A stretch of DNA of 64,000 nt, taken from the NCBI GenBank assembly GCA_001773695.1, contig MEXN01000007.1, positions 115,204 through 179,203 on the forward strand, in the 5' to 3' direction. The notes beneath the pieces are model-generated. The model was given only the letters and a program-made list of their open reading frames with translations. It had not been told where the DNA came from and ran no database searches. Shown here piece by piece: positions 11,538 through 51,993 of this stretch (position 1 is the first letter of the stretch; each line of letters begins with the position of its first letter). The position numbers and the translations under genes are program-made. This DNA comes from Candidatus Amesbacteria bacterium RIFCSPLOWO2_01_FULL_48_25. GTDB taxonomy: Bacteria > Patescibacteriota > Microgenomatia > CAZETR01 > Amesbacteraceae.

Positions 11538-13388
11538 GTGGATATTTTGAAGAGCCTAAATCCCCAACAACAAAAAGCGGTGGCTTTCAGTGAGGGGCCC
11601 TTGCTTATTTTAGCAGGAGCGGGAAGTGGAAAGACAAAGGTATTGACTCACCGAGTGGCATATCTCGTTCGCAATAAAAACGTGAGACCTGAAAATATTT
11701 TGCTTTTGACGTTTACAAATAAGGCGGCCGGGGAAATGATGAAGAGGATAATGGGCTTGTTGGGGGCGGAATTTAGAGGATATGGTGGGACTTTTCATAG
11801 TTTTTGTGCCAAGATTTTACGAAAATACGCTGGTTGGGCTCGATTGGATCCCAACTTTGTGATTTTTGACGAGGCGGACCAACTAGACACGGTAAAGCAG
11901 GCCATGGTAGCTGTGGGAGTGGATATAAAATCGGTCAGGCCGGGGTCGGTACTGGGAGCTATATCGGGCGCCAAAAACGAACTAATAACTCCGGCCGAAT
12001 ATGCCGGTTTTGCCAGAGGAAACTTTTCCCAAACTGTAGCCCGAGTATATTTGGCTTACCAACAGTTGCTTCGGCGATATAAAGCTTTGGATTTTGATGA
12101 CTTGTTGGTAGAAACAGTCAGGCTGTTGCAAATCGAGCCGGAGGTGAGGGAGAAATTAGAGGAAAATTTCAAGTTTATATTAGTAGACGAATATCAAGAT
12201 ACGAATAAGGCGCAGTATGAAATTACGAAAGTGCTCTCTAAAAAACACGGGAACTTGACTGTTGTCGGAGACGCGGCACAGGCGATTTACTCGTGGCGGG
12301 GGGCAAATTATCGAAACCTATTGTATCTTAAACAAGACTTCCCCACTCTCACGACTCTAAATTTGGAGCAAAACTACCGGTCTACCCAGATAATTTTATC
12401 GGCAGCCAATGAAGTGGTATCTAAAAACAAAAATCATCCTATATTGAACTTGTGGACGGATAGAGGTGGAGGAGAAAAAGTAACTTTTTACGAGGCAGAG
12501 AGTGAGTACGATGAAGCCCAATTTGTCATAGGACAAATTGCAACAACCAAATATTCGGAATTTGCGGTGCTATACCGGACAAATGCGCAGTCGCGGGTGT
12601 TGGAGGAGGCGTTTTTGCATTCAGGGATCCCTTACTCACTGGTTGGGGGGGTGAGATTTTACGAAAGAAAAGAGATAAAGGACGTGATTGCGTATTTGCG
12701 TTTGGTTTTAAACCCCGAGGATGAAATTTCCAGGAAGAGGGCAGAAAAATTGGGAAAGGGCAGACTACAGAAATTTACAAATTCCAATTTACAATTTTCA
12801 AATAAACTTACCTTGGACATTTTGGATGAGGTGTTGAAAATTACGGGATATTTGGAACAATTTGATGAAATGAATGAGGAAGACGCGGCCAGATTGGAAA
12901 ACATAAAAGAGCTGCGAAGCGTGGCGCAGGAATTTCCTAAATTGCCTGAACTTTTAGAACAGATTGCACTAACCGAAAAAGAAGCGTCTAGGAGTCAGCG
13001 TCTAGCGTCTAGCGGAGAAGGGGCTGTAACTCTGATGACACTACACGCGGCGAAGGGGCTGGAGTTTAAACGTGTGTTTATGGTGGGAATGGAGGAAGGG
13101 TTATTCCCCCACTCCAGATCGCTTATGGATCCCGAACAAATGGAGGAGGAACGACGCTTGTGTTATGTGGGGATGACCCGGGCGATGGATAACTTGTATC
13201 TGACTTACGCCCGGAGGAGGTTATATTTCGGGTCGCGATCCAATAATCCGGTGTCTCGGTTTTTGGCGGATATTCCGGAGGAGTTAATCGAAGTTAACCA
13301 AGAGATTAAGAAGGCTAAGAGATTAAGCTTGGAGCAAAATTGGGGTTTTGATGAAGAGGGAAATTGGCAGTGGACGCCAGACGATTAA
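11538..13388 (+). CDS. pcrA: UvrD/PcrA/Rep-family ATP-dependent DNA helicase.
   Basis: Walker A GPLLILAGAGSGKTKVLT, helicase motifs TFH, VDEYQDT, LEQNYRST, and a C-terminal domain. Carries in-frame AT-rich (12771-12810) and AGAGATTAAG (13302-13333) insertions. Confidence 0.85.
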   Translation: MDILKSLNPQQQKAVAFSEGPLLILAGAGSGKTKVLTHRVAYLVRNKNVRPENILLLTFTNKAAGEMMKRIMGLLGAEFRGYGGTFHSFCAKILRKYAGWARLDPNFVIFDEADQLDTVKQAMVAVGVDIKSVRPGSVLGAISGAKNELITPAEYAGFARGNFSQTVARVYLAYQQLLRRYKALDFDDLLVETVRLLQIEPEVREKLEENFKFILVDEYQDTNKAQYEITKVLSKKHGNLTVVGDAAQAIYSWRGANYRNLLYLKQDFPTLTTLNLEQNYRSTQIILSAANEVVSKNKNHPILNLWTDRGGGEKVTFYEAESEYDEAQFVIGQIATTKYSEFAVLYRTNAQSRVLEEAFLHSGIPYSLVGGVRFYERKEIKDVIAYLRLVLNPEDEISRKRAEKLGKGRLQKFTNSNLQFSNKLTLDILDEVLKITGYLEQFDEMNEEDAARLENIKELRSVAQEFPKLPELLEQIALTEKEASRSQRLASSGEGAVTLMTLHAAKGLEFKRVFMVGMEEGLFPHSRSLMDPEQMEEERRLCYVGMTRAMDNLYLTYARRRLYFGSRSNNPVSRFLADIPEELIEVNQEIKKAKRLSLEQNWGFDEEGNWQWTPDD

Positions 13389-13401
13389 GTATAATTGGAA
13401 T

Positions 13402-14295
13402 ATGAATAGCGATGATTGGAACAAAAATGCTGGGCATCCGATGCAATCTTTCGAGTGGGGGGAGTTTAGGGAGAAGGTGGGGAATAAAATATCGAGGGTT
13501 GTCGGTGACAAGCAATATCAGATAATTTGGAGTCGGATTAAGCCTTTTGATTTGTGGTTTGGATATTGCCCGATGTCTGGGATGCCGAATGAGAAAGATA
13601 TTAAGATACTAAGAGATGAAGCGATTAAGAATAATGGGCTCGGGATAAGATTTGAGCCTAATGAGATGAAGGGCGCGAAAATACCGGAAAGGATGGTGTC
13701 GGGAAGACATTTATTTAAGCCCAAGACTTTTCAGATAGATTTGACCTTGGGTGAAGATGAATTATTAAATAGAATGCATCCGAAGTGTAGATATAATATT
13801 CGGCTGGCACAAAAGCACGGAGTAAAAATTGGGGAAGGAGATATAGAAAGTTATGTGAAATTGATATTTGGAAAGACAGTAAAAAGACAAAAAATTTATT
13901 CACACTCGGAAAAATATCATTGGGAATTGGCACAGCTGGGATGGGTTCATTTGTTTAAGGCAGAATATAAAAATAAAGTGATTGCGAGCTGGATGGTTTT
14001 TGCCTGGAAAAATTTTGTTTACTATGCATATGGTGCATTCGATGATGACTACAAAAACTTGATGGCACCTGTTTTGGGTCTTTGGGAAATAATTAGGTGG
14101 GGAAAAAGAGAAGGATTCAAAACTCTGGATTTGTGGGGGGCCGAAGAGGGGCGCGGATTTAGCAGGTTTAAACAGCAGTTCGGACCAGAACTGGTAGAAA
14201 TGGTCGGAACGTATGATTTACCAATTAATTTTTTGCATTGGCCGTTTAGAATGGCGGAGGAAATAAGATGGAAGATCTTGCGGATATTGAAGTAG
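13402..14295 (+). CDS. FemAB/FemX-family aminoacyl-tRNA-dependent peptidyltransferase (peptidoglycan interpeptide bridge).
   Basis: HPKCRYNIRLAQKHGV (FemABX RYNIRKA motif); ~300 aa; start taken at MNSDDW (13402) directly after the pcrA stop. Confidence 0.65.
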   Translation: MNSDDWNKNAGHPMQSFEWGEFREKVGNKISRVVGDKQYQIIWSRIKPFDLWFGYCPMSGMPNEKDIKILRDEAIKNNGLGIRFEPNEMKGAKIPERMVSGRHLFKPKTFQIDLTLGEDELLNRMHPKCRYNIRLAQKHGVKIGEGDIESYVKLIFGKTVKRQKIYSHSEKYHWELAQLGWVHLFKAEYKNKVIASWMVFAWKNFVYYAYGAFDDDYKNLMAPVLGLWEIIRWGKREGFKTLDLWGAEEGRGFSRFKQQFGPELVEMVGTYDLPINFLHWPFRMAEEIRWKILRILK

Positions 14296-15080
14296 AGGAC
14301 GTGAGGCAGAGCATAGAATACGGCCGATATATTGAGAAAATCGGGTGGAGAGTGGAGAGTGGTATTTTTTTACGAAAGTTGGGGCCGGTGACAATTGCGA
14401 AGATACAAAGAAGGGATCTGCCGCCAGGTTGGGAAAAGATTTTAAAAAGAAACCGAGTTGTGATGTGTAAATATGAGCCATTGAGGACGCCTGTTGGGTG
14501 GAGACAGGATAACTGGCCGTTGTTGGGAACAAAGACGTTGAGAGTTGACTTAAGGCCAAGTGAAGAAAAAATATTTAATTCGTTTAAAAAGGACTGCAGA
14601 TACATCGTGCGGAAATTACAAGATACAACCCGCCTGCCGGACGGGCAGGGATACAAGATACAAACAGATGATTTTGAGGGATTTTATGAGATTTGGAGAA
14701 AATCGGCAAAAAGAAAGCATTTATGGATTCCGGGTAAAAAAGAGTTTGATTTTTTGGTTGACAGTTTTGGAGAAAAGTGTTTTTGTGCGACCATAAACGG
14801 TGAAGCCGGGGCGGTTATTTTGACGCATGAGAAAACGGCGTTTTATTATTACGCAGGGGCGACGGAAGAGGGAAACAGAATGAATTTGCCATATTTAGTG
14901 GTGTGGGAGGCTATGAAGGAAGCTAAAAGGCGGGGTATGAAAGTTTGGGATTTTGAAGGAATATACGATTCCAGATGGCCAAACAAAGGATGGTTGGGAT
15001 TTTCCCATTTTAAGAAAAGCTTTGGGGGAGTGGAAGTGGAATACCCGGGGTGTTTTACTAGATGGCAGGTACCGTTTTAG
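14268..15080 (+). CDS. Second FemAB/FemX-family peptidyltransferase (tandem paralog).
   Basis: FKKDCRYIVRKLQD motif and the same domain layout as the upstream gene; 28-nt overlap with it. Confidence 0.65.
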   Translation: MEDLADIEVEDVRQSIEYGRYIEKIGWRVESGIFLRKLGPVTIAKIQRRDLPPGWEKILKRNRVVMCKYEPLRTPVGWRQDNWPLLGTKTLRVDLRPSEEKIFNSFKKDCRYIVRKLQDTTRLPDGQGYKIQTDDFEGFYEIWRKSAKRKHLWIPGKKEFDFLVDSFGEKCFCATINGEAGAVILTHEKTAFYYYAGATEEGNRMNLPYLVVWEAMKEAKRRGMKVWDFEGIYDSRWPNKGWLGFSHFKKSFGGVEVEYPGCFTRWQVPF

Positions 15081-15427
15081 AATTTAAAAAAATACACCAC
15101 TTCTTTAAAAACAAGGACTAACAGAAGTTGGGCAGCAGAGAAGAAAAGCAGACCGAGGAAGGCTGTTCCCGCGGGGCCATTGTAGCTTTTGATTAGGCCG
15201 GTCTTTTTTTGGCTGAGAGTTAGATTTATTTTGCCGGGCCAAATACGAAAAGTGAAAAGAGGATCTCGGGGCAGGAAGGTAATGGTCGAGCCTGGGTTAA
15301 TGCTGCGCATGAAATGAAGCGAGTGAAAGGCCAAATATAATATTGGGATCCCCGTCAATAGGGTTCGGAGCGGGTGCTCAAGTGGCGAAACTGTGATTAA
15401 TTCGTAGGCCGTCGGGAAAGGAATCAT
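15077..15427 (-). CDS. Small membrane protein (bacterial PH-domain-like?), unknown function.
   Basis: 116 aa, two hydrophobic segments; no motif. Confidence 0.3.
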   Translation of the reverse strand: MIPFPTAYELITVSPLEHPLRTLLTGIPILYLAFHSLHFMRSINPGSTITFLPRDPLFTFRIWPGKINLTLSQKKTGLIKSYNGPAGTAFLGLLFFSAAQLLLVLVFKEVVYFFKF

Positions 15428-15449
15428 GTTTTTTTAATGATGCCGTTAT

Positions 15450-18287
15450 TTACTGGGCGTTGTCAACTTGAGCGTAATCACAGAGGATTTTGTAGTCGCA
15501 GATACGACAGAGTTGGGAACCGGAGCAGTGGAAGTCCGAGCGGGAGATTTGGTCCGCATAAGACATGATCTGTTGTTTGGCTTCTTCCAGCTGAGTGGAG
15601 GTTCTGGTGGTGGAAATTTTTTTCTGCTGGTCAAAAAAATATAAACTCAACAAAACATCCTCTGGTTTACGATTGAAGGGGGGTTCACGAAGAAGTGTGG
15701 CAACAAGAGCGTAAAAAGAAAGCTGGAGATCTTTGTCCGCGTCTTTTTGAGTGGGAAGCGTGACGCTAGTTTTGTAGTCTATTATTTCTATTTTACCGTT
15801 GGGGAGAAGATCCACGCGATCTATTTTGCCGCCGATTTTAAGAAAGACCTGCCTGCCGGCAGGCAGGGGTACAATAAAAGGCTCTTCTAGTTTTATCGGC
15901 AAGTGCTTGGGGTCAAAGTTTTTTTCAAGATATTCGGTCAAATATTTTTGGCCCCGATCAAAATAGGCCTGCTCGTGTTTTTTTGAGGTATAGCCTTCTG
16001 AGGACCAATTTTTCTTTAATAAGTCCAAGACGTCGGTCTGGCCTTTGTTGGTGAAGAATTCTTTTAGTGTGGCGTGGATGGTGTTACCGAAGGAAGAAGC
16101 GGCAGAAGTGGGAGTGGGGATTTTTAAAATATATTTGGCTTTATAGTGCAAGGGGCAATCTAAAAACGTCTGGATTTGGGAATAGCTTAAATAGGTTATT
16201 GGGATAGGCTTCCCGCCTGCAACGCTTTGCGTAGCAATGCGGGCAGGTTGCCAGTCTAATAATGAGGGTTGAATGGCTGGATGTGCTGATGACTGGATGG
16301 GGCCGAGGGTTTCGGCGATGAAGGGGGAGAGTTTCTTGATCCGCTTGCCTTCGCCATAAAAATCCGCAGCAGTAAGAAAGAGAAGATCTTTGGCACGGGT
16401 GAGGCCAACATAAAAGAGGCGACGCTCTTCCTGCAAATGAGAGTCCCCTTCCGGCAATATTTCTTTTATAAGTGCGTCGGGAATGGGAATGGGTTCGGAG
16501 CGGGAGCGGGAAGGAAAACGATCAACAACTAGATTAACCAAAAAGACAACCGGGAACTCCAGACCCTTGGCCGAATGAACCGTTAAAATATTGACAGCGT
16601 CGTTTTGACCCCAATCGACTTCGGCGGCCTGAGGAGATTCGCCCATATCGGAGGAGAGATTGAGCCAATCAACAATGGTGTGAACTGAGGCGTCGGAATT
16701 TTGAGTTTCGAAGGATTTTAGCTTGTTAAAAAATTTCATGATATTTTGAGCTTTGATTTCGTCGATGGGGGTTCGATAGTCAAGTATGGCTTTAAGTAGG
16801 CCCGATTTTTCTAGAAAATCGTAAAGAATTTGCCCGGCGGTTTCTTTGGGAACAAGGTGCAAATGCCGGTCAATTAAATCGACTAGAAGTTTAACCGAAG
16901 GCAAATCCGACTGTTCACTGGCGGCAAACAACGATAAGTTCTGTTTTCGGGCGAGGTTTGTGATTACGGCCAGGTCGCGGGCGGGAATACTAAAAAATTC
17001 CATGGCCAAGACACGATAGAATGAAACGTTGTCCTCAAAGTTGTAGAGGACTTTTAAATAGGCAATAAGATCTTTTATTTCTGGCTGGTGGAAAAGACGT
17101 CCTGGGCCAAGAAACTGATGTGGTATTCCATGATGAGATAGGGCACGGACGAAAGGTTCGGCGTGGGCATTAGCACGCACAAGGATTGCAAAGTCTTTAG
17201 CTGTTAGCTTTGAGTCGTTAGTCAGAATCTCCTTAATTTTCTTGGCGACGGCGTCGGCTTCGGACTCGACGCGGTCGAAATGAAGTAATTCTATTTTTTC
17301 ACCTTTGATTTTTCGGACAGAAGTTAATTTTTTGTCGATTTTTTCTTTGACCTCTAACCGATCCGGGTTGTTGTTTTGGATAAGAGTGTGGGCTTTGTCG
17401 AGAATACCTTGGGTCGAGCGGTAATTTTGCACAAGAGTAATCAACTTGGCATCGGAATAATTTTTGCGAAATTGAATAACATTGGAAATGGCGGCACCGC
17501 GCCATCTGTAAATCGCCTGGTCGTCATCGGCTACAACCGTCAAGTTGCGGTTGCGGCTGGCTAAGAGATTGATGAGTTGATTTTGGGCGTAATTGGTGTC
17601 TTGAAATTCATCCACTAGTATATATTTGAATTTCTGCTGATATAGTTTGAGGACGCTGGGACGGTCGCGGAAGAGTTTGAGAGAATAGGAAATTAAATCC
17701 GAAAAATCTAATACACCCTCTTTGACTTTAAGATCGGAATAGTCGGAATAAAGCCCGGCCAATTCTTGATAATTTGAGTCCTTTTTTTTGGACCATGCCA
17801 AATATTGGGAAGGACTGACGTCCTCGTCCTGAAGGCGGTTGAAATGCTGGAGAGCAGCTGTCAAAAATTTGGCCGGATTGCCCAGAGGGCGATAGTAATT
17901 AAGATCAAAATCAAAAAGGTGGTTTTTGAGAAGAGAAACGGCGTCGGGAGCGGTAAGAAGCTTGTAATTAGTATCTAGGCCCAGATGCAAGCCTTCTTCG
18001 CGTAAGATGCGATCACAAAATGAATGAAAGGTGCTGACCCACATTTGGGTATAACCGTAAGGCAGAGCGACGTCGATACGTTCCTGCATCTGTCCAGCCG
18101 CTTTTTCAGTGAATGTGAGGCATAATATTTCGGAAGGTTGGGCGAGACCTTGGGCTATGAGCCATTTAACGCGCTCGGTGACGACTGTGGTTTTGCCTGT
18201 CCCCGCACCGGCTATTATCAGAAGCGGGCCGGAGCTGTGAGTTACGGCTTCGAGTTGCTGTTTATTGAGGGTTTTTTCTTCGGACAT
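15450..18287 (-). CDS. UvrD-type helicase fused to a C-terminal PD-(D/E)XK RecB-like nuclease with a Cys4 cluster (AddB/Cas4-like).
   Basis: Walker A GPLLIIAGAGTGKTTV, YRWRGA, and a C-terminal ...CSGSQLCRICDYKILC four-cysteine motif after a nuclease-like region. ATG at 18287 is preceded by GAGGTGAGG (12-nt spacing). Confidence 0.75.
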   Translation of the reverse strand: MSEEKTLNKQQLEAVTHSSGPLLIIAGAGTGKTTVVTERVKWLIAQGLAQPSEILCLTFTEKAAGQMQERIDVALPYGYTQMWVSTFHSFCDRILREEGLHLGLDTNYKLLTAPDAVSLLKNHLFDFDLNYYRPLGNPAKFLTAALQHFNRLQDEDVSPSQYLAWSKKKDSNYQELAGLYSDYSDLKVKEGVLDFSDLISYSLKLFRDRPSVLKLYQQKFKYILVDEFQDTNYAQNQLINLLASRNRNLTVVADDDQAIYRWRGAAISNVIQFRKNYSDAKLITLVQNYRSTQGILDKAHTLIQNNNPDRLEVKEKIDKKLTSVRKIKGEKIELLHFDRVESEADAVAKKIKEILTNDSKLTAKDFAILVRANAHAEPFVRALSHHGIPHQFLGPGRLFHQPEIKDLIAYLKVLYNFEDNVSFYRVLAMEFFSIPARDLAVITNLARKQNLSLFAASEQSDLPSVKLLVDLIDRHLHLVPKETAGQILYDFLEKSGLLKAILDYRTPIDEIKAQNIMKFFNKLKSFETQNSDASVHTIVDWLNLSSDMGESPQAAEVDWGQNDAVNILTVHSAKGLEFPVVFLVNLVVDRFPSRSRSEPIPIPDALIKEILPEGDSHLQEERRLFYVGLTRAKDLLFLTAADFYGEGKRIKKLSPFIAETLGPIQSSAHPAIQPSLLDWQPARIATQSVAGGKPIPITYLSYSQIQTFLDCPLHYKAKYILKIPTPTSAASSFGNTIHATLKEFFTNKGQTDVLDLLKKNWSSEGYTSKKHEQAYFDRGQKYLTEYLEKNFDPKHLPIKLEEPFIVPLPAGRQVFLKIGGKIDRVDLLPNGKIEIIDYKTSVTLPTQKDADKDLQLSFYALVATLLREPPFNRKPEDVLLSLYFFDQQKKISTTRTSTQLEEAKQQIMSYADQISRSDFHCSGSQLCRICDYKILCDYAQVDNAQ

Positions 18288-18299
18288 GTCCCAATAATA

Positions 18300-18353
18300 C
18301 CTCACCTCTAACCCCTCTCCTAAATTTAGGAGAGGGGAACCAAAGGGGTGAGG
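18300..18353. repeat. GC-rich nested inverted-repeat element (copy R1): CCTCACC-tctaa-CCCCTCTCCT-aaattt-AGGAGAGGGG-aaccaaa-GGGGTGAGG. It sits in the divergent helicase/rnhB spacer and supplies a Shine-Dalgarno sequence to both genes.
   Basis: Both arm pairs read directly. GGGGTGAGG lies 12 nt before the rnhB ATG, and its complement GAGGTGAGG lies 12 nt before the helicase ATG. Confidence 0.7.
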
Positions 18354-18365
18354 TAAAATCGCGGT

Positions 18366-23198: not shown

Positions 23199-23558
23199 GT
23201 GCAAGTTTCCAAACGAAATGTCAGTCCGATTTTAAAAAAACAGATTGAAAAAATGTGGTATCAGTTGGTGGTAGATATCAAAACTCCCCAGGATGCCGAG
23301 GTGATACTGGGAGGGTTATTATCCGAGACTGAACTGGAAGCAGTTACTAAAAGACTGGCGGTGGGTTATTGGTTAAGCAACGGCAGAAGTTATGAAAACA
23401 TAAGAGAGAATCTAAAGGTATCAAGTGCTACGATTGCGGCCATTGCCCAGGAGCTGAAAAAGCCGGAGTGGACGTCTGCACTACAGCGAGTGAAGGCCGA
23501 AGAGTGGGCAACGAAGTGGGAGACGAGGATAAACAAATTATTTAATCCTCGTAGTTAA
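23199..23558 (+). CDS. TrpR-like YerC/YecD family DNA-binding protein.
   Basis: LLSETELEAVTKRLAVGYWLSNGRSYENIRENLKVSSATIAAIAQEL pattern; 119 aa. Confidence 0.45.
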   Translation: MQVSKRNVSPILKKQIEKMWYQLVVDIKTPQDAEVILGGLLSETELEAVTKRLAVGYWLSNGRSYENIRENLKVSSATIAAIAQELKKPEWTSALQRVKAEEWATKWETRINKLFNPRS

Positions 23559-23600
23559 ACAGTTGATCAGTTAATCAGTTTGCCAGTTAAGTTATTAAGT

Positions 23601-25177: not shown

Positions 25178-25180
25178 TAA

Positions 25181-25216
25181 CTCACCCCTAATCCCTCTCT
25201 TAATCTAAGAGAGGGA
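25181..25216. repeat. Partial copy (R2) of the GC-rich inverted-repeat element: CTCACCCC-taa-TCCCTCTCTTA-atc-TAAGAGAGGGA. It gives AGAGAGGGA as the Shine-Dalgarno sequence 14 nt before the ATG at 25230.
   Basis: Inner arms complementary; the outer right arm is missing. Confidence 0.5.
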
Positions 25217-25229: not shown

Positions 25230-25910
25230 ATGAAAAAACCACTCATTACAATCACCACTGACTTTGGGGATGGGTTTGCCACAAGTCAGCTAAAAGTGAT
25301 TGTGGCAGGCTTGGGTTACACTGGTCATCTGGTGGAAAACCACGATGTCAAGCCATATTCGATCGTCGAGGGGGCGTATGGGATATGGCAGCTGGCCAAA
25401 TATTGCCCAAAGGGATCGGTGCATGTGGGAGTAGTAGATCCGGGAGTAGGGTCAGATAGAGCCGGAATAGTAATTAAAACCAAGAATTTCTGGTTTGTGG
25501 GGCCGGATAATGGGCTGTTGTATCCCGCGGCAGTTGCGGATGGAATTGAAAGAATTTGGAAAATTATAGATTTTGAAAATGTTTCAAATACTTTCCATGG
25601 ACGAGATGTGTTTATAAAACAGGCAGTGTGGCTGGCGCAGGGGAAAGAACCAAGAGGGGAAGAGATTGAAGAGATTAAGAGATTAAGTTTCGAAGAAGGG
25701 CAGGTGGTGCATATAGACCATTATGGGAATGCCAAGATTTGGGGGAAAAAGACTTTTGGGCTGCCGGTAGTCAAAACTTTTTCGGATGTGCCCGAGGGGA
25801 GTCCGTTAATTTTTAATGGCAGTAGTGACCTACTGGAGCTGGCAGTGAATCTGGGCAGCGCAGAGGAGCGATTTGGATTAAAATTGGGACAAGTTATAGA
25901 AAAACTGTGA
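25230..25910 (+). CDS. SAM hydroxide adenosyltransferase (DUF62; SAM hydrolase, fluorinase/chlorinase-like fold).
   Basis: N-terminal ITITTDFGDGFA and VGVVDPGVGSDR motifs. Carries an in-frame AGAGATTAAG repeat (EEIEEIKRLS) in the inter-domain linker. Confidence 0.7.
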   Translation: MKKPLITITTDFGDGFATSQLKVIVAGLGYTGHLVENHDVKPYSIVEGAYGIWQLAKYCPKGSVHVGVVDPGVGSDRAGIVIKTKNFWFVGPDNGLLYPAAVADGIERIWKIIDFENVSNTFHGRDVFIKQAVWLAQGKEPRGEEIEEIKRLSFEEGQVVHIDHYGNAKIWGKKTFGLPVVKTFSDVPEGSPLIFNGSSDLLELAVNLGSAEERFGLKLGQVIEKL

Positions 25911-36010: not shown

Positions 36011-36083
36011 GATCCGGTGGCGAAGTGGTAACGCGGCTGTCTGCAAAACAGCTATTGCAGGGGTTCGATTCCCCTCCGGATCT
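36011..36083 (+). tRNA. tRNA-Cys (anticodon GCA).
   Basis: Acceptor stem GATCCGG/CCGGATC, anticodon stem GCTGT/ACAGC with loop CTGCAAA, T-arm AGGGG-TTCGATT-CCCCT, discriminator T. No encoded CCA. Confidence 0.8.
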
Positions 36084-44575: not shown

Positions 44576-44578
44576 GGT

Positions 44579-45059: not shown

Positions 45060-45888
45060 AGCCTAATCCTACTCTTTCTGTGGTCATTTTGGGTTTCATA
45101 TATAAATATTGCAACCAGAATAGTAATAGATTTATTGGAAACAGTAAATTTGAAATTTTAAATTTTAAATTTGAAATCAAGTCTAAGTTATTAAATTTTA
45201 AATTTTTCAATGATTCTGAATAAGCCACTGGAAGGTAATCTTTGGCCCAGGAGTTGGCGGTTAAAAACCCGTAGTGGGTGCCGCCGCGGTCGAAGATGCA
45301 TTTGGCTTGCAAAATTTCGTGGGCGGTATATAAGTTATTAGCTGTTAGTCGTAAGCTATTAGCATCTAAATAGAGGTTGTCGCAGATGAGGCCGGGGGCG
45401 ATTTTGACTCCCGGTTTGCGGCGAAAAGAATGGATGTTGAGATACACAAGGAGACGGGTGAGCCAGAGGGTGTGGGGAGAGGTAATAATCATCAAATCGA
45501 TGTCGTCGTCTGCGGGGCAGTTGTTCATGGCCAGGGCGCCGGTGACGAAGATGGCCTGGATAAAGGGAATTTTGGAGAGTTTATCCCCTACTCTGCGAGC
45601 GATTAACCATTTTGGTTTACTGAACTTCGCACGTTGTTTTCTGAGATGAATTGAGTTCTGATAACCTGACAAAAAATAAAATCCGTCTTTTTTCTGTACC
45701 TCACCCCATCCCTCTCCTAAATTCTCGCTTTGCTCGTGCCGTTGGCCAGGAGAGGGAGCCAGAGGGAGAGGTTTAGAACTCCAACGGCGGATTTCTGTAT
45801 ACGTTAGCGGGTAGTCGTAGCGGGCGAAGTAGGACAGGGTATTTGCCAGGGAGTTATTTTTGAGTTGGGGGAGCGACGATGAGGCCAT
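45031..45888 (-). CDS. Polymerase-beta-superfamily nucleotidyltransferase-like protein carrying an inserted repeat element. C-terminal extent uncertain because the 3' end runs into AT-rich simple repeats.
   Basis: TGALAMNNCPADDDIDLMII (G[SG]…DxD NTase motif). The N-terminal segment LAPSPGQRHEQSENLGEGWGEV is encoded by repeat copy R3. Confidence 0.4.
   Translation of the reverse strand: MASSSLPQLKNNSLANTLSYFARYDYPLTYTEIRRWSSKPLPLAPSPGQRHEQSENLGEGWGEVQKKDGFYFLSGYQNSIHLRKQRAKFSKPKWLIARRVGDKLSKIPFIQAIFVTGALAMNNCPADDDIDLMIITSPHTLWLTRLLVYLNIHSFRRKPGVKIAPGLICDNLYLDANSLRLTANNLYTAHEILQAKCIFDRGGTHYGFLTANSWAKDYLPVAYSESLKNLKFNNLDLISNLKFKISNLLFPINLLLFWLQYLYMKPKMTTERVGLGYAFFHPQKK
45699..45771. repeat. Full-length copy (R3) of the GC-rich inverted-repeat element: CCTCACCCCATCCCTCTCCT – 29-nt loop – AGGAGAGGGAGCCAGAGGGAGAGG, in frame inside the NTase-like gene.
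   Basis: Both arms are exact reverse complements of the arms of copy R4 (59189-59237). The loop resembles the loop of R5. Confidence 0.75.
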
Positions 45889-47374
45889 ATTGAGTCAAGA
45901 CCTGGGAAATGCCATTGTTTAGAGTCTTGATGGCACTTCCAGGAGAACCGCCATTGACTACATAGTTGACGGCGTCGGCAAAATATGTGGAGAGGCGGGA
46001 GTTGATACCGGAAGAACCATCAAAAGTGTGGGAGGCGATATACCAAGAATGAGAAATCGGGGCTTGGGAAATAATGGCACCTAAATAAGGTGAGCCTTGA
46101 ACTGAACTGGCCAGATCTACCCGGCTATAAGGCTCGCCAAAAGCCCGACCGGAAGAGGTGCTTTGCTGGAAGAATTTTTGTTGTCCATCTTTGGAGCTTA
46201 GGAATTTGATAAAATCCCATGCGGTCCCTTGCTGCGGGCTTTTTTTATTGACTGCTTCTACCCAGTAACTAGCCCAGGCGATAGGTTGTTCACCGCGGGA
46301 TGTGTCGACTGGAAGTTGGGGAATGGGATGGAGACTAAATTTAAGATTGGGGTTTTTGGACTGAATTTCAAAGACACGCCAAGAGGGGGCGAAATAAAAA
46401 CCGACCTTGCCGGCGGCAAATTGGGTAGTGGAACTGGGAAGGGTGGAGTTCCACATCCGGTCAAACTTGGCAAAATTGGTGTAGTAGGTGAGAACGTCTT
46501 CGGCGGCTTTACCGGAAGGGGAATTGAGATTGACTTTGTTTTGGAGCATGATGACGGACAAAATATCTTGCCAGTGATCGATGTTGTCAGCCGTTCCCAT
46601 CGCGGCGCCGGAAATGATAGGCCGGGATTTGGAAGTACAACTGCTATCGGGGGTGTCACACCTGGTCATGGCTTGGGCGGCAACGCGAAAGTCGTCCCAA
46701 TTTTGGGGTACTGAGTGGCCGGACCCACGCAGGAGATCGTCGTTGATGTACATGGCCAGTCCGTCGTATTCCAAGGGAATGGCCAGATACGAACTGCCTA
46801 ATCTCAAATCGGCCCGGGCGGTGGGGTAAAAAGTCGAGTCATACTCTTGGGGTGAGTAAATTTCCGGCGGAACCGGGGCTAGATCTGCCCGAAACATGGG
46901 AATCCAGGAGTTGTGAATGCGGAAAATGTCCGGGCCCTTCGACTGGCTCAAGGCGGCTTGGAGGCGTTCCCTGTATTCGGTAGGAGATTGCTGGGTATAT
47001 TCGATTTTGACTTTGGGGTGACTTGCTTGATATTCCTCTATTAGAGGTTTCATAACCGTGTCCGGCTCCCACAAGCCCCAATATTTAATGGTCTGGGAGG
47101 AGAGGGGGGAAGACTTAAGAAGAAAAAGGGCGGCGAACGCCCCCAGACCAACAACCAACAATCCTGCCAAAGCCAAAAATAGGGCTTTGGTGGGGAAGCG
47201 ACGGGAACTGACTACTTTGACTGGAGCTTGGGGAGTAGGTTGGGAAGCAGCATCTCGGGATGGAGGGGGCGGGGGGGGAGGAGTGGAACTGGATAGTCGG
47301 AAGGGTAAATTGGGTGATTGGTCCGGAGGAGGCGGAGCCGGTGGTACTAGGGTAGGAGGGGTGGTGATGTCCAT
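45854..47374 (-). CDS. Extracellular solute-binding protein (SBP_bac_1, sugar-type ABC substrate-binding) with a poly-proline N-terminal tail and a TM anchor; no cognate permease in the window.
   Basis: MDITTPPTLVPPAPPPPDQSPN...PPPPPPPS...; TM helix; mature domain ...IKYWGLWEPDT...IFRIHNSWIPMF... is typical of family-1 SBPs. Confidence 0.6.
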   Translation of the reverse strand: MDITTPPTLVPPAPPPPDQSPNLPFRLSSSTPPPPPPPSRDAASQPTPQAPVKVVSSRRFPTKALFLALAGLLVVGLGAFAALFLLKSSPLSSQTIKYWGLWEPDTVMKPLIEEYQASHPKVKIEYTQQSPTEYRERLQAALSQSKGPDIFRIHNSWIPMFRADLAPVPPEIYSPQEYDSTFYPTARADLRLGSSYLAIPLEYDGLAMYINDDLLRGSGHSVPQNWDDFRVAAQAMTRCDTPDSSCTSKSRPIISGAAMGTADNIDHWQDILSVIMLQNKVNLNSPSGKAAEDVLTYYTNFAKFDRMWNSTLPSSTTQFAAGKVGFYFAPSWRVFEIQSKNPNLKFSLHPIPQLPVDTSRGEQPIAWASYWVEAVNKKSPQQGTAWDFIKFLSSKDGQQKFFQQSTSSGRAFGEPYSRVDLASSVQGSPYLGAIISQAPISHSWYIASHTFDGSSGINSRLSTYFADAVNYVVNGGSPGSAIKTLNNGISQVLTQYGLIVAPPTQK

Positions 47375-47426
47375 AGTAATGCCAAGTATATACTAACAAT
47401 AGTTGAATTATAATTGCTAGTGAATT

Positions 47427-49169
47427 ATGGGTTTGACTAAAATTAAGTTTTTGATTGCAGCTACAGTAGTTTTGGGAGTGTTTTTGGGCCTGATGTTAGA
47501 GGGAGTTTATTGGGGGCGGGTAGCATGGGGGGTGAGAGTGGGAAGAGTAGAGGTGGGAGGAATGAAAACCGAGGAGGCAAGAGCTAAAATCTTAAACCAG
47601 TTGCGTGTCTCACAAATTGAGGTGGTCTGGGGAACGACAAAAACCGTCATCCCGGCAAATAGAATTGGTCTCTTGTACGAGCCGGATCGTTCTTGGCAAA
47701 AAGCGGTGAGTCTGGGTCATGATAAAGGAATTTTGGTTAATTGGAGCACCAGAGGGCGGGCACTTCGATGGGGGATGGTAGTCGATCCGGTTTTTACCTT
47801 GGATGAGAATCGCCTGGCGGGAGAGATTGCCAGTATCGCCTCATATATCAATATTCCGGCGGTGGAGCCAGAAATTCAGATAGAGACTTTTGGAAAAACC
47901 AAAAGAGTGAATGTGAGTCTGGGGGAAAACGGGCAAGAAGTGGACGAGCAAAAATTGATTTCCCGAGTCCGGGCGGTTGTTGCCGCTGGAGATAATGAGG
48001 AAATAGAAATACCTATTGTACGAATTACGCCAAAATTGTCAGACGATGAAGCTAAAACGGTTTTAACCCGGGCTGAGAAAATCGTCGATAGGATGGTTGA
48101 AGTAAAGTTTGACGAGCTGGCGTTGAAGTGGGATATCGGCGATGAAGAACTAACCAAGTGGATAGACGCAGGGGGCGGATGGAAGAGACCGCTTATAGAA
48201 CTTTGGGGGCAACAGTTGGCCCAGAATGTGGATCGACCGGCACAAAACGCTCAATTACATTTTGTCAGGCCCGGCAGGGTAGAGGAATTTAAGCCCGGCC
48301 GGGATGGGTATCGGGTGGATCAATTGGGGCTGACTGCCAATATCGAGGCGGCCTTAACTCGGCTTCTTTCTGGCAGCCCAAAAGAGGTGGTGGACTTGCC
48401 GGTGGAGAGGACAGCTCCAGAAGTCAAAACCGGGGACGCCAACAATTTGGGGATAAAAGAGCTAATCGGCCGGGGAGAATCGTGGTTCGTAGGATCGATT
48501 ACCAACAGAATTTATAACCTGCAAAAGGCGGCCGCCGAAATAAACGGGGTATTGGTAGCGCCGGGGGAAACGTTTTCATTTAACCAGACTGTGGGAGATA
48601 TATCGTCGGCGACTGGGTACAGACAAGCTTACATCATTAAAGAAGGTAGAACTATATTGGGAGACGGAGGCGGAGTGTGCCAGGTGTCCTCTACTCTATT
48701 TCGAGCAGTCCTTTCGGCCGGACTACCAATTGAGGCGCGAACGGCCCATGCTTTCCGGGTGTCTTATTACGAAGTCAAATACCAACCAGGGTTTGACGCC
48801 ACAGTATTTCAACCGGAACCGGACTTTAAATTCAGAAACGATACGCAGGGGCATATCTTGATCCAGACGGTATATGATGAGAAGACTAAATATCTGGCAT
48901 TTGAAATATACGGCACGTCTGACGGCAGGAAAGTGGAGATTTCCAAAGCCAGGATTTGGGATGTGGTGGCACCGCCTCCGGACTTGTACCAGGATGATCC
49001 AACCTTGGCAGTGGGAGTGGTCAGGGAAGTTGAGCACAAGGCGTGGGGGGCTAAGGTGGCTTTTGATTGGAAAGTGACTCGGGGGGAGGAAATGTTGCAG
49101 GAGCGAACCTTCTATTCCAACTACCGCCCCTGGCAGGCCGTGTTTTTGCGAGGAACGAAGACTAATTAA
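47427..49169 (+). CDS. VanW-family protein (N-terminal TM, C-terminal VanW domain).
   Basis: ...GYRQAYIIKEGRTILGDGGGVCQVSSTLFRAV...PGFDATVF... VanW domain core; 580 aa. Confidence 0.8.
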   Translation: MGLTKIKFLIAATVVLGVFLGLMLEGVYWGRVAWGVRVGRVEVGGMKTEEARAKILNQLRVSQIEVVWGTTKTVIPANRIGLLYEPDRSWQKAVSLGHDKGILVNWSTRGRALRWGMVVDPVFTLDENRLAGEIASIASYINIPAVEPEIQIETFGKTKRVNVSLGENGQEVDEQKLISRVRAVVAAGDNEEIEIPIVRITPKLSDDEAKTVLTRAEKIVDRMVEVKFDELALKWDIGDEELTKWIDAGGGWKRPLIELWGQQLAQNVDRPAQNAQLHFVRPGRVEEFKPGRDGYRVDQLGLTANIEAALTRLLSGSPKEVVDLPVERTAPEVKTGDANNLGIKELIGRGESWFVGSITNRIYNLQKAAAEINGVLVAPGETFSFNQTVGDISSATGYRQAYIIKEGRTILGDGGGVCQVSSTLFRAVLSAGLPIEARTAHAFRVSYYEVKYQPGFDATVFQPEPDFKFRNDTQGHILIQTVYDEKTKYLAFEIYGTSDGRKVEISKARIWDVVAPPPDLYQDDPTLAVGVVREVEHKAWGAKVAFDWKVTRGEEMLQERTFYSNYRPWQAVFLRGTKTN

Positions 49170-49818
49170 TAAATTCAAAAGTTGATAAAATCTGTTCGAG
49201 AATTTCGAAGGCTTCTTTTTGATCGGCTGCGGCTAGATCCCCTTCTTTCGGATCGCTCCTGTCACCGCTTTCAAAATATCGTAAATTGACCTCAAAACAG
49301 TTATCGCCAATGTCTTTGAAGACCTTGTAACCTTGGTTTGCGTTGTGTGTTCCGGCTGCACCTCCACTATCTTTGTCAGAATAATAAAACGCGTTCTCAT
49401 TTATCATTTTGAACTTGGTCAAGGGAGAGCTGTCATTCGTCTTGATATAACATGCGGTGGGGGTGTTAAGATTGGGAATTTGCTGGATCTGAAATATATA
49501 TCTCGTGCCCAGATTGTAACCGGGAAAGGATTTTCGTTTTTCAACGGCGAGCAGCGTTTCGGGAAAATCTGACCCCTCACCACTATTCTCAACTAGAATT
49601 TTGAAGTCACTGGGGAAGAGGACCGAAATTCCGAAGTGATTGTTGGTAAATGTCTGCCAATCGGACGCGGGACTGGCCATGGGAGAAGGGGTGGATCTCG
49701 GGGCCATAAATTTGCCCCAGGCGAAAACTGCAAGGAAGGAGGCGAGAAAGAGAACCAAAATGAAGAGAATTATATATCTTGGAGCAGTTCGTAGTTCCAT
49801 GACGAGATCTGACTGCAT
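49162..49818 (-). CDS. Hypothetical membrane-anchored secreted protein.
   Basis: N-terminal TM, then a 190-aa domain of unknown function. Confidence 0.35.
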   Translation of the reverse strand: MQSDLVMELRTAPRYIILFILVLFLASFLAVFAWGKFMAPRSTPSPMASPASDWQTFTNNHFGISVLFPSDFKILVENSGEGSDFPETLLAVEKRKSFPGYNLGTRYIFQIQQIPNLNTPTACYIKTNDSSPLTKFKMINENAFYYSDKDSGGAAGTHNANQGYKVFKDIGDNCFEVNLRYFESGDRSDPKEGDLAAADQKEAFEILEQILSTFEFIN

Positions 49819-49893
49819 TGTACCACTAATTAGAAAGTTGTGAGGAGTGGGGAAAAGATTGGTAAGAAGTTGTAAAAACAGGTAAAAATAGCT

Positions 49894-50505
49894 TCAGATG
49901 AGTAAATCTTCGCGAAATACGACTTGAGGGTCCCAGTCGGTGTGGAACCGATGCATACACTCTTTCAGATGGTCAAAAACTGCCCGATTGCCACATACAT
50001 GAGCAAGGTCAAGTGGCGACAAGCTCTCGATCTGGGCTATAGTTTGGATACCTTGGCGAACGAGACTCATATACAAAAAGTGGTTGGGGATGAGAGTTTC
50101 GATAGCATCTGGGCCCACAAGGCTGCGGCGACGGATTTTTGCCAAACCGAGAAGAAGATGGTATCTAAACCGGCGAGGCCGGGGGTCCCCCGTGACCTGA
50201 GCTGAGACTTCTTCTTGAGTGAGCCATCGGGCCGATTGTCCTTGAGGAAATAAATATAGCTTGACTTGAGTGACTGTGGAGGGTGGAAGTACTTCCTCCA
50301 GACCAAAGTGTCCATTCTCCATGGTCTGACGGAGCCAGGAGTTAAGTCGGCCACGAAACCCTAGGTCTAAAGAGTGGTAGCGATGTTCAAAAACCGAGGG
50401 GAGAGTTGAAACAACATTTTGGGGCTGGGGAAATCTGGGTCGGATTTTATCGGTCCGGTTGAGCAATTCATCAAAACCTGGAAGAGATTTTTGTTCGGCC
50501 GTCAT
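49894..50505 (-). CDS. Hypothetical protein (203 aa), unknown.
   Basis: No recognisable motif; Arg-rich. Confidence 0.3.
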   Translation of the reverse strand: MTAEQKSLPGFDELLNRTDKIRPRFPQPQNVVSTLPSVFEHRYHSLDLGFRGRLNSWLRQTMENGHFGLEEVLPPSTVTQVKLYLFPQGQSARWLTQEEVSAQVTGDPRPRRFRYHLLLGLAKIRRRSLVGPDAIETLIPNHFLYMSLVRQGIQTIAQIESLSPLDLAHVCGNRAVFDHLKECMHRFHTDWDPQVVFREDLLI

Positions 50506-50540
50506 GATTAAAGCTCTCGTGCGAGAGTATAATCCTCCCT

Positions 50541-50984
50541 ATGATTTCGACGCAAATATACAAGCAAAGCGAGCTGGCGAACGTAGCTAAAAAGGTATTA
50601 CTAATGAGGCCTAATATAATAGCTTTGGAGGGGCCGATGGGAGCCGGTAAAACGACATTGACAAAAGTGTTGGCTAGAACGCTGGGGATAAAAGAGGAAA
50701 TCGTCTCCCCTACTTTCGTCCTGCACCGACCGTATTCTGGAAAAAATGGAATTACTTTTAATCATATTGACTGTTGGAGAATGGAGAAGTTCGGAGAACT
50801 GCAACATATTGGTTTGCAAAAGATGATTGGGGAAAAATCGACTATCGTGATCGAGTGGGCGGATAGGTTTGAGAAAGAGATTAAGAGATTAAGTAAGAAA
50901 GAGATTAAGTTGGTTTGGGTAAAAATTGAATATGGGGAAAAAAAGAATGAAAGGAGGATAAGTTATGAAGATATTGGCTATTGA
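50541..50984 (+). CDS. tsaE: tRNA threonylcarbamoyladenosine biosynthesis ATPase TsaE (YjeE).
   Basis: IIALEGPMGAGKTTLTKVLARTLG...VVSPTF; C-terminal in-frame AGAGATTAAG repeats (EKEIKRLSKKEIKL). Confidence 0.8.
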   Translation: MISTQIYKQSELANVAKKVLLMRPNIIALEGPMGAGKTTLTKVLARTLGIKEEIVSPTFVLHRPYSGKNGITFNHIDCWRMEKFGELQHIGLQKMIGEKSTIVIEWADRFEKEIKRLSKKEIKLVWVKIEYGEKKNERRISYEDIGY

Positions 50985-51993
50985 GACGAGCTGTGATGAG
51001 ACGGCAGCGGCGGTGACTGAGGGAACCGAAATCCTGTCGAGTGTGAAGTGGACACAGGAGATTCACAATCAATATGGCGGCGTGGTGCCTGCCCTTGCCA
51101 AGAGGGCACATGAGGAACGCATCGAGGAGATTATTAATGATGCTTTAAAGCGTTCAGAGACTAGCGTTCAGCGTCTAGGGGCGGTAGCTGTCACGGTCGG
51201 GCCTGGGCTGGCGATTGCGCTCGAGGTGGGTATTAAATGGGCGAGGAAACTGGCCGCCGATTGGCATAAACCGTTGATAGGAATAAATCACATCGAGGGT
51301 CATATACTGAGTGCTCTAAAAAAAGAGGTGACTTTCCCCTGCCAGGCCCTAGTAATCTCAGGTGGACATACGCAGGTAATTAGAGTTGATGGGATTGGAA
51401 AATATGAAATATTGGCGCAGAGCCTGGATGATGATATTGGGGAGGCGTTGGATAAAGGGGCGAGGATGTTGGGACTCCCCTACCCGGGTGGCCCAGCTTT
51501 GGAGAAGTTGGCGGCACAGGGAGATCCAATAAAATATAAACTGCCATTGCCTATGGCGGGGAGAGAAGGAAGGGCATTTAGTTATTCAGGGCTTAAGACG
51601 GCGTTTTACCGTCTAGTTACCCAGTTGCACAGTTACCCAGTTGCACAGTTTGAACCACAGGAAATTTCAGATCTGGCGGCGGGTTATCAAGCGATGGTGT
51701 TTAGACATTTAGTGAGAACCCTTAAAGTGAATGTTCAAAATTCAATGTTCAATGTTCATGACCTTTTGGTGGGGGGTGGGGTGGCAGCAAATATGAAGTT
51801 GAGGGACGAGATTAAGAAATTAAGCAATGAAGTCAGCTTAAACGTTCATTACCCAGCTAATTTAATGCTGTGCACGGATAATGCGGCCATGATCGGAGTA
51901 GCGGCGGGATTTAAGGCGAAAAGGGGCGAGTTTACTGACCCGGAGAGAATTGATCGTCTGCCGAGGTGGAGGGTGGACGAAATTTCCTCTTAA
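50965..51993 (+). CDS. tsaD: tRNA N6-adenosine threonylcarbamoyltransferase TsaD (Kae1/Gcp).
   Basis: MKILAIETSCDETAAAV, HxEGH (INHIEGHIL), GGVAAN. Contains two in-frame simple-repeat insertions (51617-51655 and 51726-51762). Confidence 0.9.
   Translation: MKILAIETSCDETAAAVTEGTEILSSVKWTQEIHNQYGGVVPALAKRAHEERIEEIINDALKRSETSVQRLGAVAVTVGPGLAIALEVGIKWARKLAADWHKPLIGINHIEGHILSALKKEVTFPCQALVISGGHTQVIRVDGIGKYEILAQSLDDDIGEALDKGARMLGLPYPGGPALEKLAAQGDPIKYKLPLPMAGREGRAFSYSGLKTAFYRLVTQLHSYPVAQFEPQEISDLAAGYQAMVFRHLVRTLKVNVQNSMFNVHDLLVGGGVAANMKLRDEIKKLSNEVSLNVHYPANLMLCTDNAAMIGVAAGFKAKRGEFTDPERIDRLPRWRVDEISS

Follow-up and report, generated by a model that had tools for sequence, protein, structure and literature searches.

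A short repeated element, AGAGATTAAG, runs through the coding sequences of several unrelated genes in a 64,000-nt stretch of the genome of Candidatus Amesbacteria bacterium RIFCSPLOWO2_01_FULL_48_25, a groundwater bacterium of the candidate phyla radiation (CPR). This stretch (contig MEXN01000007.1, positions 115,204 to 179,203) is referred to below as the window, and the homologues of its proteins place it in the Microgenomates group of the CPR. The copies of the element are probably microsatellite arrays of an 8-nt unit lying in coding DNA, members of a lineage-wide population of 7- and 8-nt repeats which would be generated by slippage or conversion, filtered by selection for an open frame, and constrained in three reading frames. 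The clade that carries these repeats is made up of Microgenomates (CPR) with a GC skew of a single sign.

Period and frequency of the octamer motif

The 10-mer AGAGATTAAG occurs seven times in the window, always on the + strand (at 13301, 13318, 25670, 25678, 50876, 50884, and 50900), and is its joint most frequent 10-mer. Dinucleotide shuffles predict 0.20 copies, and none of 100 shuffles reached seven. The copies are found in the genes for a helicase, an S-adenosylmethionine (SAM) hydroxide adenosyltransferase, or SAM hydrolase, and TsaE, and a partial copy lies in tsaD. A preliminary description of this DNA had reported this recurrence, had quoted the peptides EIKKAKRLS, EEIEEIKRLS, and EKEIKRLSKKEIKL, and had considered the pattern unexpected by chance, all of which is confirmed (in tsaD, the peptide reads DEIKKLS). 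The copies that it listed are also confirmed, but two were overlooked, namely 13595-13630 in a FemAB-like gene and 59580-59604 in a minus-strand gene.

The same description had taken the element for a tandem 10-mer. However, neighbouring copies of AGAGATTAAG share 2 nt, and the period is therefore 8 and not 10, with AAGAGATT (equivalently GAGATTAA) as the unit, as seen both with Tandem Repeats Finder (TRF) and in a census of offsets. TRF returns a period of 8, the consensus AAGAGATT, and 3.4-4.5 copies at 13300, 13595, 25660, and 50875. The core of the arrays is the 17-mer GAGATTAAGAGATTAAG, read as GAG ATT AAG AGA TTA AG to give EIKRL(S), which is exact at 25671 (SAM hydrolase gene) and at 50877 (tsaE), and has one mismatch at 51808 (tsaD); an exact 19-mer, AAGAGATTAAGAGATTAAG, is present at two loci of the window. 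The AAGAGATT arrays thus show the head-to-tail copies and the non-triplet unit of a microsatellite, and the octamer motif falls in flexible parts of at least five proteins.

Neither chance nor codon usage accounts for these arrays, as judged by dinucleotide shuffles, a third-order Markov model, codon permutation, and codon-usage probabilities. The excess over composition amounts to 7 against 0.2, 9 against 0.24, and, for arrays of periods 7 and 8 together, 14 against 0.38 (codon permutation). With the window's own + strand codon usage, the probability of this particular 18-mer given EIKRLS is about 0.001. The hexapeptide itself is expected 0.0018 times in 19.6 k residues and is observed twice, with identical codons, while the 9-mer GAGATTAAG, whose copies are split 8:0 between the + and − strands, encodes five of the eight + strand EIK tripeptides, against 8.5% expected.

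Conservation at orthologous positions

The preliminary description had proposed a small duplicative module or an insertion mechanism, an interpretation which, as a whole, is partly supported. A short module does recur in frame, at the DNA level, in unrelated genes; an insertion or a mobile module is contradicted by the orthologues of TsaE, TsaD, the SAM hydrolase, PcrA, and the FemAB-like protein, all of which keep the segments, an outcome that the description itself had named as a refutation. Target-site duplications, which had been suggested as a sign of insertion, are missing from the flanks of the pcrA, SAM hydrolase, tsaE, and tsaD arrays, and no similarity extends beyond the array. A mobile element of the miniature inverted-repeat transposable element (MITE) type is rejected on the same grounds: there is no presence/absence variation among the orthologues of the five genes, there are no flanking repeats, and homologues in the PDB align without a gap.

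The array segments occupy homologous variable positions in helices or linkers, where distant homologues have residues and not gaps. The TsaE segment, which follows the EWAD motif, is matched by residues in TsaE proteins of solved structure and is longer by about three residues; EIKKLS of TsaD aligns with LRAKLAEMM of the Escherichia coli protein; and EEIKRLS of the SAM hydrolase aligns with DSIVKLN of PH0463, the window protein being shorter there. Among nearer orthologues, EIK[K/R]LS is kept in six TsaE proteins (P0002, P0003, P0005, P0009, P0024, and P0043), EIKKLS[D/N]EV in the TsaD of four lineages, QEIKKxKRLS in the closest PcrA proteins, and the SAM hydrolase segment in orthologues at 85-98% identity. 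The exact 17-mer is found at this position in the TsaD gene of an Amesbacteria relative (L060), and a perfect 17-mer also occurs in the FemAB-like orthologue of Patescibacteria H43-bin206_1 (L099), at the position where the window array is decayed.

This conservation reaches the nucleotides. Seven TsaE genes at 49-72% protein identity were compared (the window, L001, L003, L040, L150, L151, and L152), five of which, L001, L003, L150, L151, and L152, had been found by protein homology alone and one, L040, through a scan for the 17-mer. All seven encode E-I-K-[K/R]-L as GAG ATT AAG A[G/A]A TTA, followed by AGT (S) in six of them and by AGA (R) in L040, while codon identity at other conserved TsaE residues is 50-71% and flanking conserved codons vary freely. 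The tsaE of L151 even carries the exact 19-mer, despite the lack of GC skew in this relative. A motif conserved solely as protein would keep the peptide and leave synonymous codons free, whereas the codons are fixed in the seven TsaE lineages. The sole exception is the SAM hydrolase orthologue L138 (74% identity), which has VEIKRLEF written with other codons, more distant orthologues having IK[K/S/N]IKKLEF. Because VEIKRLEF is kept with different codons, the SAM hydrolase site carries a protein-level I-K-[K/R]-L constraint as well.

A wider population of 7- and 8-nt repeats

The octamer motif is one of several families of short tandem repeats in the window (Table 1). In a census of exact tandem runs of at least 10 matches, six loci were found at offset 7, five at offset 8, three at offset 14, and three at offset 16, and none at offsets 3, 5, 9-11, 13, and 15; the other entries are one CA dinucleotide run (offsets 2, 4, and 6) and single arrays at a few longer offsets. 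For runs of at least nine matches, with expected counts obtained by permuting codons within each gene, eight runs are observed at period 7 (0.18 expected), six at period 8 (0.20), eight at period 14 (1.3), and three at period 16 (0.24), and a third-order Markov model gives the same picture. Periods 3, 6, and 9 are not enriched in the window, which sets its arrays apart from repeats of the Borg type, for which units in multiples of three are reported.

Nearly all arrays of the window lie inside intact open reading frames (ORFs) and are translated through without stops, which is unusual, as repeats with such units ordinarily disrupt the frame. The exceptions are 23553-23590, where a gene ends, and the short arrays 58573-58596 and 63266-63300. 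The arrays do not occupy the intergenic positions upstream of start codons that characterize the TAACTGA repeats and the short tandemly repeated repetitive (STRR) sequences. At least three dispersed families can be distinguished: AAGAGATT; octamers and 16-mers resembling CAGTTGAC (23553, 51611, 58359, and 61367); and CAATTTN heptamers (9447, 12772, 58711, and 59480). Every family is found on the + DNA strand regardless of the strand of the gene, with counts of 12:0 for CAGTT-N3-CAGTT and 7:0 for AATTTNCAATTT; the single hexamer CAATTT is counted 40:59. A literature search found no description of 7- or 8-nt tandem repeats in CPR coding sequences, although its coverage was incomplete, and the novelty of the observation is provisional for this reason.

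Table 1. Tandem arrays of the window, with their host genes and encoded peptides.
Array	Positions	DNA strand	Gene and location	Encoded peptide
AAGAGATT array	13300..13327	+	UvrD/PcrA helicase gene (11538-13388), C-terminal tail	QEIKKAKRLS
Degenerate 4.5-unit octamer array, GATATTAA GATACTAA GAGATGAA GCGATTAA G	13595..13630	+	FemAB-like gene (13402-14295), adjoining pcrA	DIKILRDEAIK
AAGAGATT array	25660..25687	+	SAM hydroxide adenosyltransferase gene (25230-25910), interdomain linker	EEIEEIKRLS
4.4-unit array, AAGAGATT AAGAGATT AAGTAAGA AAGAGATT AAG	50872..50910	+	tsaE (50541-50984), after EWAD motif	EKEIKRLSKKEIKL
Octamer array, GAGATTAA GAAATTAA GCAATGAA G	51808..51832	+	tsaD (50965-51993)	DEIKKLSNE
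Related octamer array, GAGATTGA GATATTAG GATATTAA G	59580..59604	+	O-antigen-ligase-like gene (58579-59802, minus strand)	LNILISQS
(CAGTTGAC)3.6, second octamer family	61370..61398	+	rnpA (61276-61677, minus strand)	
(AGTTACCCAGTTGCAC)2.2, period 16, CAGTTG family	51611..51653	+	tsaD, variable loop	
CAATTTN heptamer and AATTTCTA octamer arrays, third family	9447..9511	+	DUF2298 membrane-protein gene	
Third family, further array	12772-12801		pcrA	
Third family, further arrays	58711-58737 and 59480-59515		minus-strand gene	

Several of these arrays have a finer structure. The pcrA array consists of GAGATTAAG, an in-frame 9-nt stretch (AAGGCTAAG), and AGATTAAG, that is, an interrupted 17-mer, whose two AGAGATTAAG copies lie 17 nt apart and are read in different frames (EIK, then RLS). 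The array of the SAM hydrolase gene is preceded by a 9-nt in-frame duplication (GAAGAGATT twice), and that of tsaE additionally shows a super-period of 24 nt. The array at 59580-59604 encodes a hydrophobic stretch of a membrane protein, and the tsaD loop with the period-16 array exceeds that of E. coli TsaD by six residues. In dnaA (62153-62176), another octamer array, (GGAGAGCG)3.0, is perfect over its 24 nt and encodes RRAGERES near residue 85-93 of DnaA, a site expected to be the variable linker after the N-terminal domain.

Distribution in other genomes

The excess of 7- and 8-nt repeats is shared by close relatives with a strong GC skew of one sign, but not by E. coli or by most unskewed CPR relatives. 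Counting exact runs of at least nine matches, skewed relatives found by protein homology have seven arrays of period 7 and two of period 8 in 36 kb, as well as nine of period 14, whereas unskewed CPR relatives have one of each of the first two periods in 68 kb, both of them in tsaE/tsaD of L151. E. coli K-12 has neither in 50 kb, with triplet-period repeats only.

When 185,579 species genomes were scanned for the 17-mer, at least 120 stretches were returned, against about 70 expected by chance. The matches listed fall into two classes. The first comprises non-coding arrays, many of them long, that mix GAGATTAA, GAGATTGG, GAGATTG, and GGGATTAG units, several per genome, in Caldilineaceae, Anaerolineales, Bacteroidota, and others (such as L028 from Algoriphagus, and L009, L011, L016, and L042 from Chloroflexota); a single 8-kb stretch of Algoriphagus holds 23 arrays of period 7. 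The second comprises copies that lie in frame in coding sequences of skewed Patescibacteria, without exception on the G-rich strand, with three exact copies in H43-bin206_1 and two in CAYHNU01 among the matches listed. The mixed composition of the non-coding arrays indicates that 7- and 8-nt units intermix, and that GAGATTAA is a recurrent microsatellite type well beyond the CPR. A phage origin was also considered and rejected, the 12 matches to the 17-mer in viral contigs being near a rough estimate of chance.

Translation and turnover of the arrays

The arrays sit in permissive helices, linkers, and loops, and translation passes through all three frames from one unit to the next: GAG ATT AAG / AGA TTA AGx / xAy GAA gives EIK-RL[S/R]-[D/N]E. 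A perfect third GAGATTAA unit would produce an in-frame TAA, and every coding copy is altered at this point (TTAA to TGAA, CGAA, or GAAA), the third units observed being GAGATGAA, GAGACGAA, GTAATGAA, GTGATGAA, GCAATGAA, and GTAAGAAA. The result of this stop-avoiding third unit is a recurrent module, EIKRL[S/R][D/N]Ex[T/I]K, encoded by the four-unit form GAGATTAA GAGATTAA GNNAYGAA GNNAYTAA G and found in the TsaE, TsaD, FemAB, RecF, PGK, and TatD proteins of several genomes.

Different repeat families can occupy the same site. The TsaE site holds AAGAGATT arrays in seven lineages, (CAAATCT)3.4, encoding QISNLKSQ, in Amesbacteria, and (TTTGAAATTAGAAA)2, encoding EIRNLKLE, in L004; the I and L positions are kept whichever family is present, and the length is unchanged. 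The unskewed outgroup has no more than a proto-repeat there (CAA ATT ACC GAT CTC AAA TCT CAA). Similarly, a first region of TsaD carries (CAATGCT)4.6 in L040, mixed CAATGCT/CAACGCT units in L004, and variants of period 14 in L003 and the window, and the outgroup is without a repeat, all versions being equal in length. On the other hand, a (CAATATC)3.6 array in the TsaD of L004 (10773-10797) adds 21 nt, that is, three heptamer units, and with them a lineage-specific insertion of seven residues (ENDQYPISNIQ).

Changes in copy number were also sought in about 100 kb of comparisons with eight contigs from the same species, which had been assembled independently of each other and have 99.93-100% identity to the window. 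The only indel is the loss of one CAGTTGAC unit in rnpA (L134, a strain from sample ERZ27254809). The resulting frameshift cuts RnpA from 133 residues to 113, and the gene calls for that contig include no rnpA.

Strand asymmetry and gene context

The GC skew is +0.2 to +0.3 over the whole window, about 91% of which is coding, with equal coding length on both strands. At its right end, the minus strand carries jag, yidC, and rnpA (yidD and rpmH are additionally called there in relatives), followed by dnaA (61897-63258), a perfect DnaA box (TTATCCACA, at ~63400), and dnaN (from ~63440). A switch of GC skew at dnaA, which would define leading and lagging strands, was sought and not found: the skew is +0.2 to +0.5 on both sides, and its sign is unchanged through the dnaA region and for 10 kb further (the window plus L132/L133, 11400-21362). 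This agrees with what has been published on the Microgenomates order UBA1400, in which the skew has one sign over the whole chromosome and for which one-directional replication has been proposed (PMC7143001), in a paper that makes no mention of tandem repeats. A scan of the window for Rfam families and tRNAs returned tRNA-Cys at 36011 only, and no Rfam match at the arrays.

Origin of the arrays and alternative explanations

If the arrays are slippage-derived microsatellites, they would arise in place from proto-repeats, as I-K-K-L written ATT AAG AAA TTA AG is already 8-periodic, and replication slippage or misaligned repair would homogenise adjacent units. The survivors would be those outcomes with an open frame, no stops, and a tolerable amphipathic peptide, and an identical unit might emerge in unrelated genes because only such outcomes survive. 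Each base of the unit would be non-synonymous in one of the three frames, and concerted evolution would freeze even "synonymous" sites; this three-frame constraint, together with concerted evolution, would then be the reason for the nucleotide-level conservation across orthologues. In the sister families, a whole-unit change (rnpA), an exact gain of three units (TsaD of L004), and length-neutral overwriting are all observed. A causal tie of the repeats to one-directional replication may also exist. The cause of the preference for 7-8 nt, as well as that of the recurrence of the unit, is one that we infer.

Several observations weigh against this explanation. The AAGAGATT arrays show no copy-number variation among the eight near-identical contigs, slippage being shown for the sister family alone. 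Homogenisation accounts for the likeness of adjacent units, but by itself fails to explain that GAGATTAA persists as the unit at protein identities as low as 49%, the unskewed L151 included, and gives no reason for E being always GAG, even where the second unit reads GAA. The argument from a three-frame constraint is itself inferential, and the protein-level constraint at the SAM hydrolase site, where VEIKRLEF is kept with other codons, contributes to the conservation. Moreover, GAGATTAA recurs in many genes, and also in Chloroflexota and Bacteroidota as non-coding arrays, which might indicate a cause specific to this sequence, and the preference for 7-8 nt over other lengths is left without a reason, as is the fixity of each family on one strand.

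The invariance at the TsaE site would be best explained if the 17-mer GAGATTAAGAGATTAAG were a functional strand-polar signal in DNA or RNA, whether of the type of Chi or of the FtsK-orienting polar sequences (KOPS), an uptake sequence, or the target of an RNA-binding protein or small RNA, with the tandem form as part of the signal. There, seven lineages have the same nucleotides, in contrast to the synonymous sites on either side, which vary. The G-rich strand carries every copy (8:0 for GAGATTAAG), even the one in a minus-strand gene, and related genomes hold several exact copies (three in H43-bin206_1, two in CAYHNU01). Since replication of the chromosome probably proceeds in a single direction in this group (PMC7143001), a polar motif would be expected on one strand genome-wide. 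Over-representation and strand bias are thus those of a polar or uptake motif, but the density is low, with about 5-6 loci in 64 kb, and the restriction to the sense strand is accounted for by stop codons in two of the three antisense frames. Many 7- and 8-nt families of unrelated sequence behave alike, and other lineages have a different repeat family at the identical TsaE site. No promoter- or terminator-like site overlaps the arrays at the two loci scanned, pcrA/FemAB and tsaE (two promoter-like matches near pcrA/FemAB lie outside the arrays), no RNA structure is predicted at four arrays (fold z-scores of −0.95 to +0.63), and the arrays lack Rfam matches. Such a signal is accordingly regarded as unlikely.

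An equally unlikely alternative is ectopic short-patch gene conversion or template switching between dispersed arrays, by which the copies would share descent without a transposase. RecF of L107 and TsaE of L150/L003 match over 32 of 33 nt, third-unit variants look more alike within one genome (GAGACGAA and GCGACGAA in H43-bin206_1), two of the copies in the window fall in adjacent gene pairs (pcrA/FemAB and tsaE/tsaD), and one strand is kept per family. However, with each locus conserved in orthologues, copying would have to date far back; similarity stops at the edges of the array, and the arrays take the place of existing sequence instead of lengthening it. Besides, viable third and fourth units are few, so that matches between genes are expected fairly often (and are estimated as not significant), and the third and fourth units all differ among the five copies of the window. 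Ectopic copying is possible, then, but not needed.

A protein-level motif, in which an amphipathic E-I-K-[K/R]-L-S helix or strand is favoured in proteins rich in K, E, I, and L and the DNA periodicity is a by-product of codon preference, is largely refuted as the sole cause and very improbable as such. The EIK tripeptide is indeed 3.3-fold over-represented in genes of both strands, I-K-[K/R]-L is kept at the SAM hydrolase site in all orthologues, including those with other codons, and the I and L positions of the TsaE site persist under any repeat family. Nevertheless, the codon choice is far from usage, as the figures above for the 18-mer and for EIK indicate, the period-8 signal runs on across codon boundaries into the third and fourth units, and the stop-avoiding substitutions make sense only for a DNA repeat. 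Selection on a peptide cannot enrich periods 7 and 8 genome-wide and leave 3, 6, and 9 without any excess.

Finally, the footprint of a small mobile element, or repeated insertion and excision of a transposon leaving 8-bp target-site duplications, is scarcely credible: 8 bp is a common length of target duplications and another element of the genome, a palindromic one, is indeed inserted in frame in genes, but the arrays lack terminal inverted repeats and presence/absence variation among orthologues, reach 3-5 units, are built from many different units, and have no transposase seen near them.

A palindromic element and other features

The palindromic element is separate from the arrays. It forms a hairpin with the core TCACCCC..CCCTCTCC-loop-GGAGAGGG..GGGGTGA and is found at 18300-18352, 25178-25216, and 59189-59240, and also at ~45701-45760, both in intergenic DNA and in frame inside a Wzy_C-like gene, where it encodes the peptide TSPHPSPESGEGARGRG. 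Similar peptides form an insertion of 14-16 residues in the TsaD of L001 and L060, missing from that of the window, and a related stretch occurs in RnpA. This is a true in-frame insertion element, reminiscent of the Rickettsia palindromic elements. The hairpin just upstream of the SAM hydrolase start holds TCTCTTAATCT (25189-25199), 11 nt that are complementary to the octamer motif, which follows 470 nt later on the same transcript. A role as antisense partner of the octamer motif was rejected, as this complement belongs to the separate palindromic element and is probably a coincidence.

Two further features concern the ORFs themselves. Those at 6798-8378 (minus strand) and 8232-10490 (plus strand, GTG start) overlap by 147 nt, with an AACGTAT heptamer array at 8347-8364 inside the overlap, and the plus-strand gene probably begins further downstream. 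The (CA)8.5 tract at 2575-2591 lies inside the ORF 2159-2608 and encodes FTHTHTLTL near its C-terminus; a dinucleotide tract of this kind would be frame-sensitive.

Comparison with known repeat systems

In-gene tandem repeats of Borgs reportedly have unit lengths in multiples of three, and are said to be recent and fast-evolving. Unlike repeats of that description, the arrays of the window have units of 7-8 nt, keep the frame by steps of three units or by length-neutral overwriting, and can be old. What both have in common is the presence of perfect tandem repeats within ORFs that keep the frame and create new low-complexity protein segments (PMC9879509).

Among the long prokaryotic simple sequence repeats (SSRs) with units of 5-11 nt surveyed by Mrazek, Guo and Shah in 2007, as summarised in PMC4679880, the most frequent class is that of heptanucleotide units, and slippage related to the footprint of the polymerase has been proposed to explain them. 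These SSRs resemble the arrays of the window in their head-to-tail non-triplet units, the dominance of heptamers, and their patchy phylogenetic spread. However, that survey, in the same summary, found multiples of three to be tolerated in genes, whereas in the window 7- and 8-nt units lie in essential genes and are read in three frames, in arrays of 2-5 units at conserved orthologous sites, with triplet periods unenriched.

The TAACTGA repeats of Beggiatoaceae, Cyanobacteria, and Bacteroidetes (MacGregor 2015, PMC4679880), together with the cyanobacterial STRR heptamers, are alike in that one family occupies many loci with 2-6 copies, occasional copies in ORFs give 7-residue peptide repeats, one strand has stops in all frames, and the origin is unexplained. 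The CAGTT[G/A]A family of the window even resembles TCAGTTA, the reverse complement of TAACTGA. In contrast, the TAACTGA repeats are mostly intergenic, just upstream of start codons, with their ORF copies at the ends of hypothetical proteins, while the arrays of the window are almost all coding and lie in conserved housekeeping proteins.

The contingency loci, or phase-variable SSRs, of host-adapted bacteria share the frame shift caused by unit slippage, as in the one-unit CAGTTGAC variant of rnpA. Their tracts, however, are long, lie close to the 5' end of surface or restriction genes, and have switching as their function, whereas the arrays of the window are short, located in essential genes, and apparently kept in the ON frame. 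Likewise, uptake signal sequences and DNA uptake sequences (USS/DUS), Chi, and KOPS are over-represented, strand-biased oligomers at permissive coding positions that are conserved among relatives, but they are mainly single copies, much denser, and have a known protein reader, whereas the signal of the window is intrinsically tandem and common to many unrelated units.

Implications

Non-triplet microsatellites are usually seen as poison to coding sequences or as on/off switches; here, they appear to be routine material of protein loops across a bacterial clade, in proteins as central as those encoded by tsaD, tsaE, rnpA, dnaA, and pcrA. There are also practical consequences, as the arrays can produce spurious frameshift calls and strain-level "pseudogenes" in metagenome-assembled genomes, and, since unrelated genes contain identical 33-nt modules, can lead inferences from homology astray.

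A broader proposal can be put forward tentatively, and it has a smaller chance of being right than the microsatellite origin of the arrays. According to it, the replication or repair of the Microgenomates clade, possibly tied to one-directional replication, would continually make and homogenise 7-8-nt repeats on one strand, and these repeats would be the main source of turnover of loops and linkers even in essential genes, with units such as GAGATTAA fixed for long periods by three-frame constraint or as a strand-polar signal. If confirmed genome-wide, the arrays would provide a concrete mutational mechanism for the diversification of loops and linkers in the streamlined genomes of the CPR, a natural example of sequence constraint in three frames simultaneously, and possibly a handle on the unusual replication, marked by a GC skew of one sign, of these bacteria.

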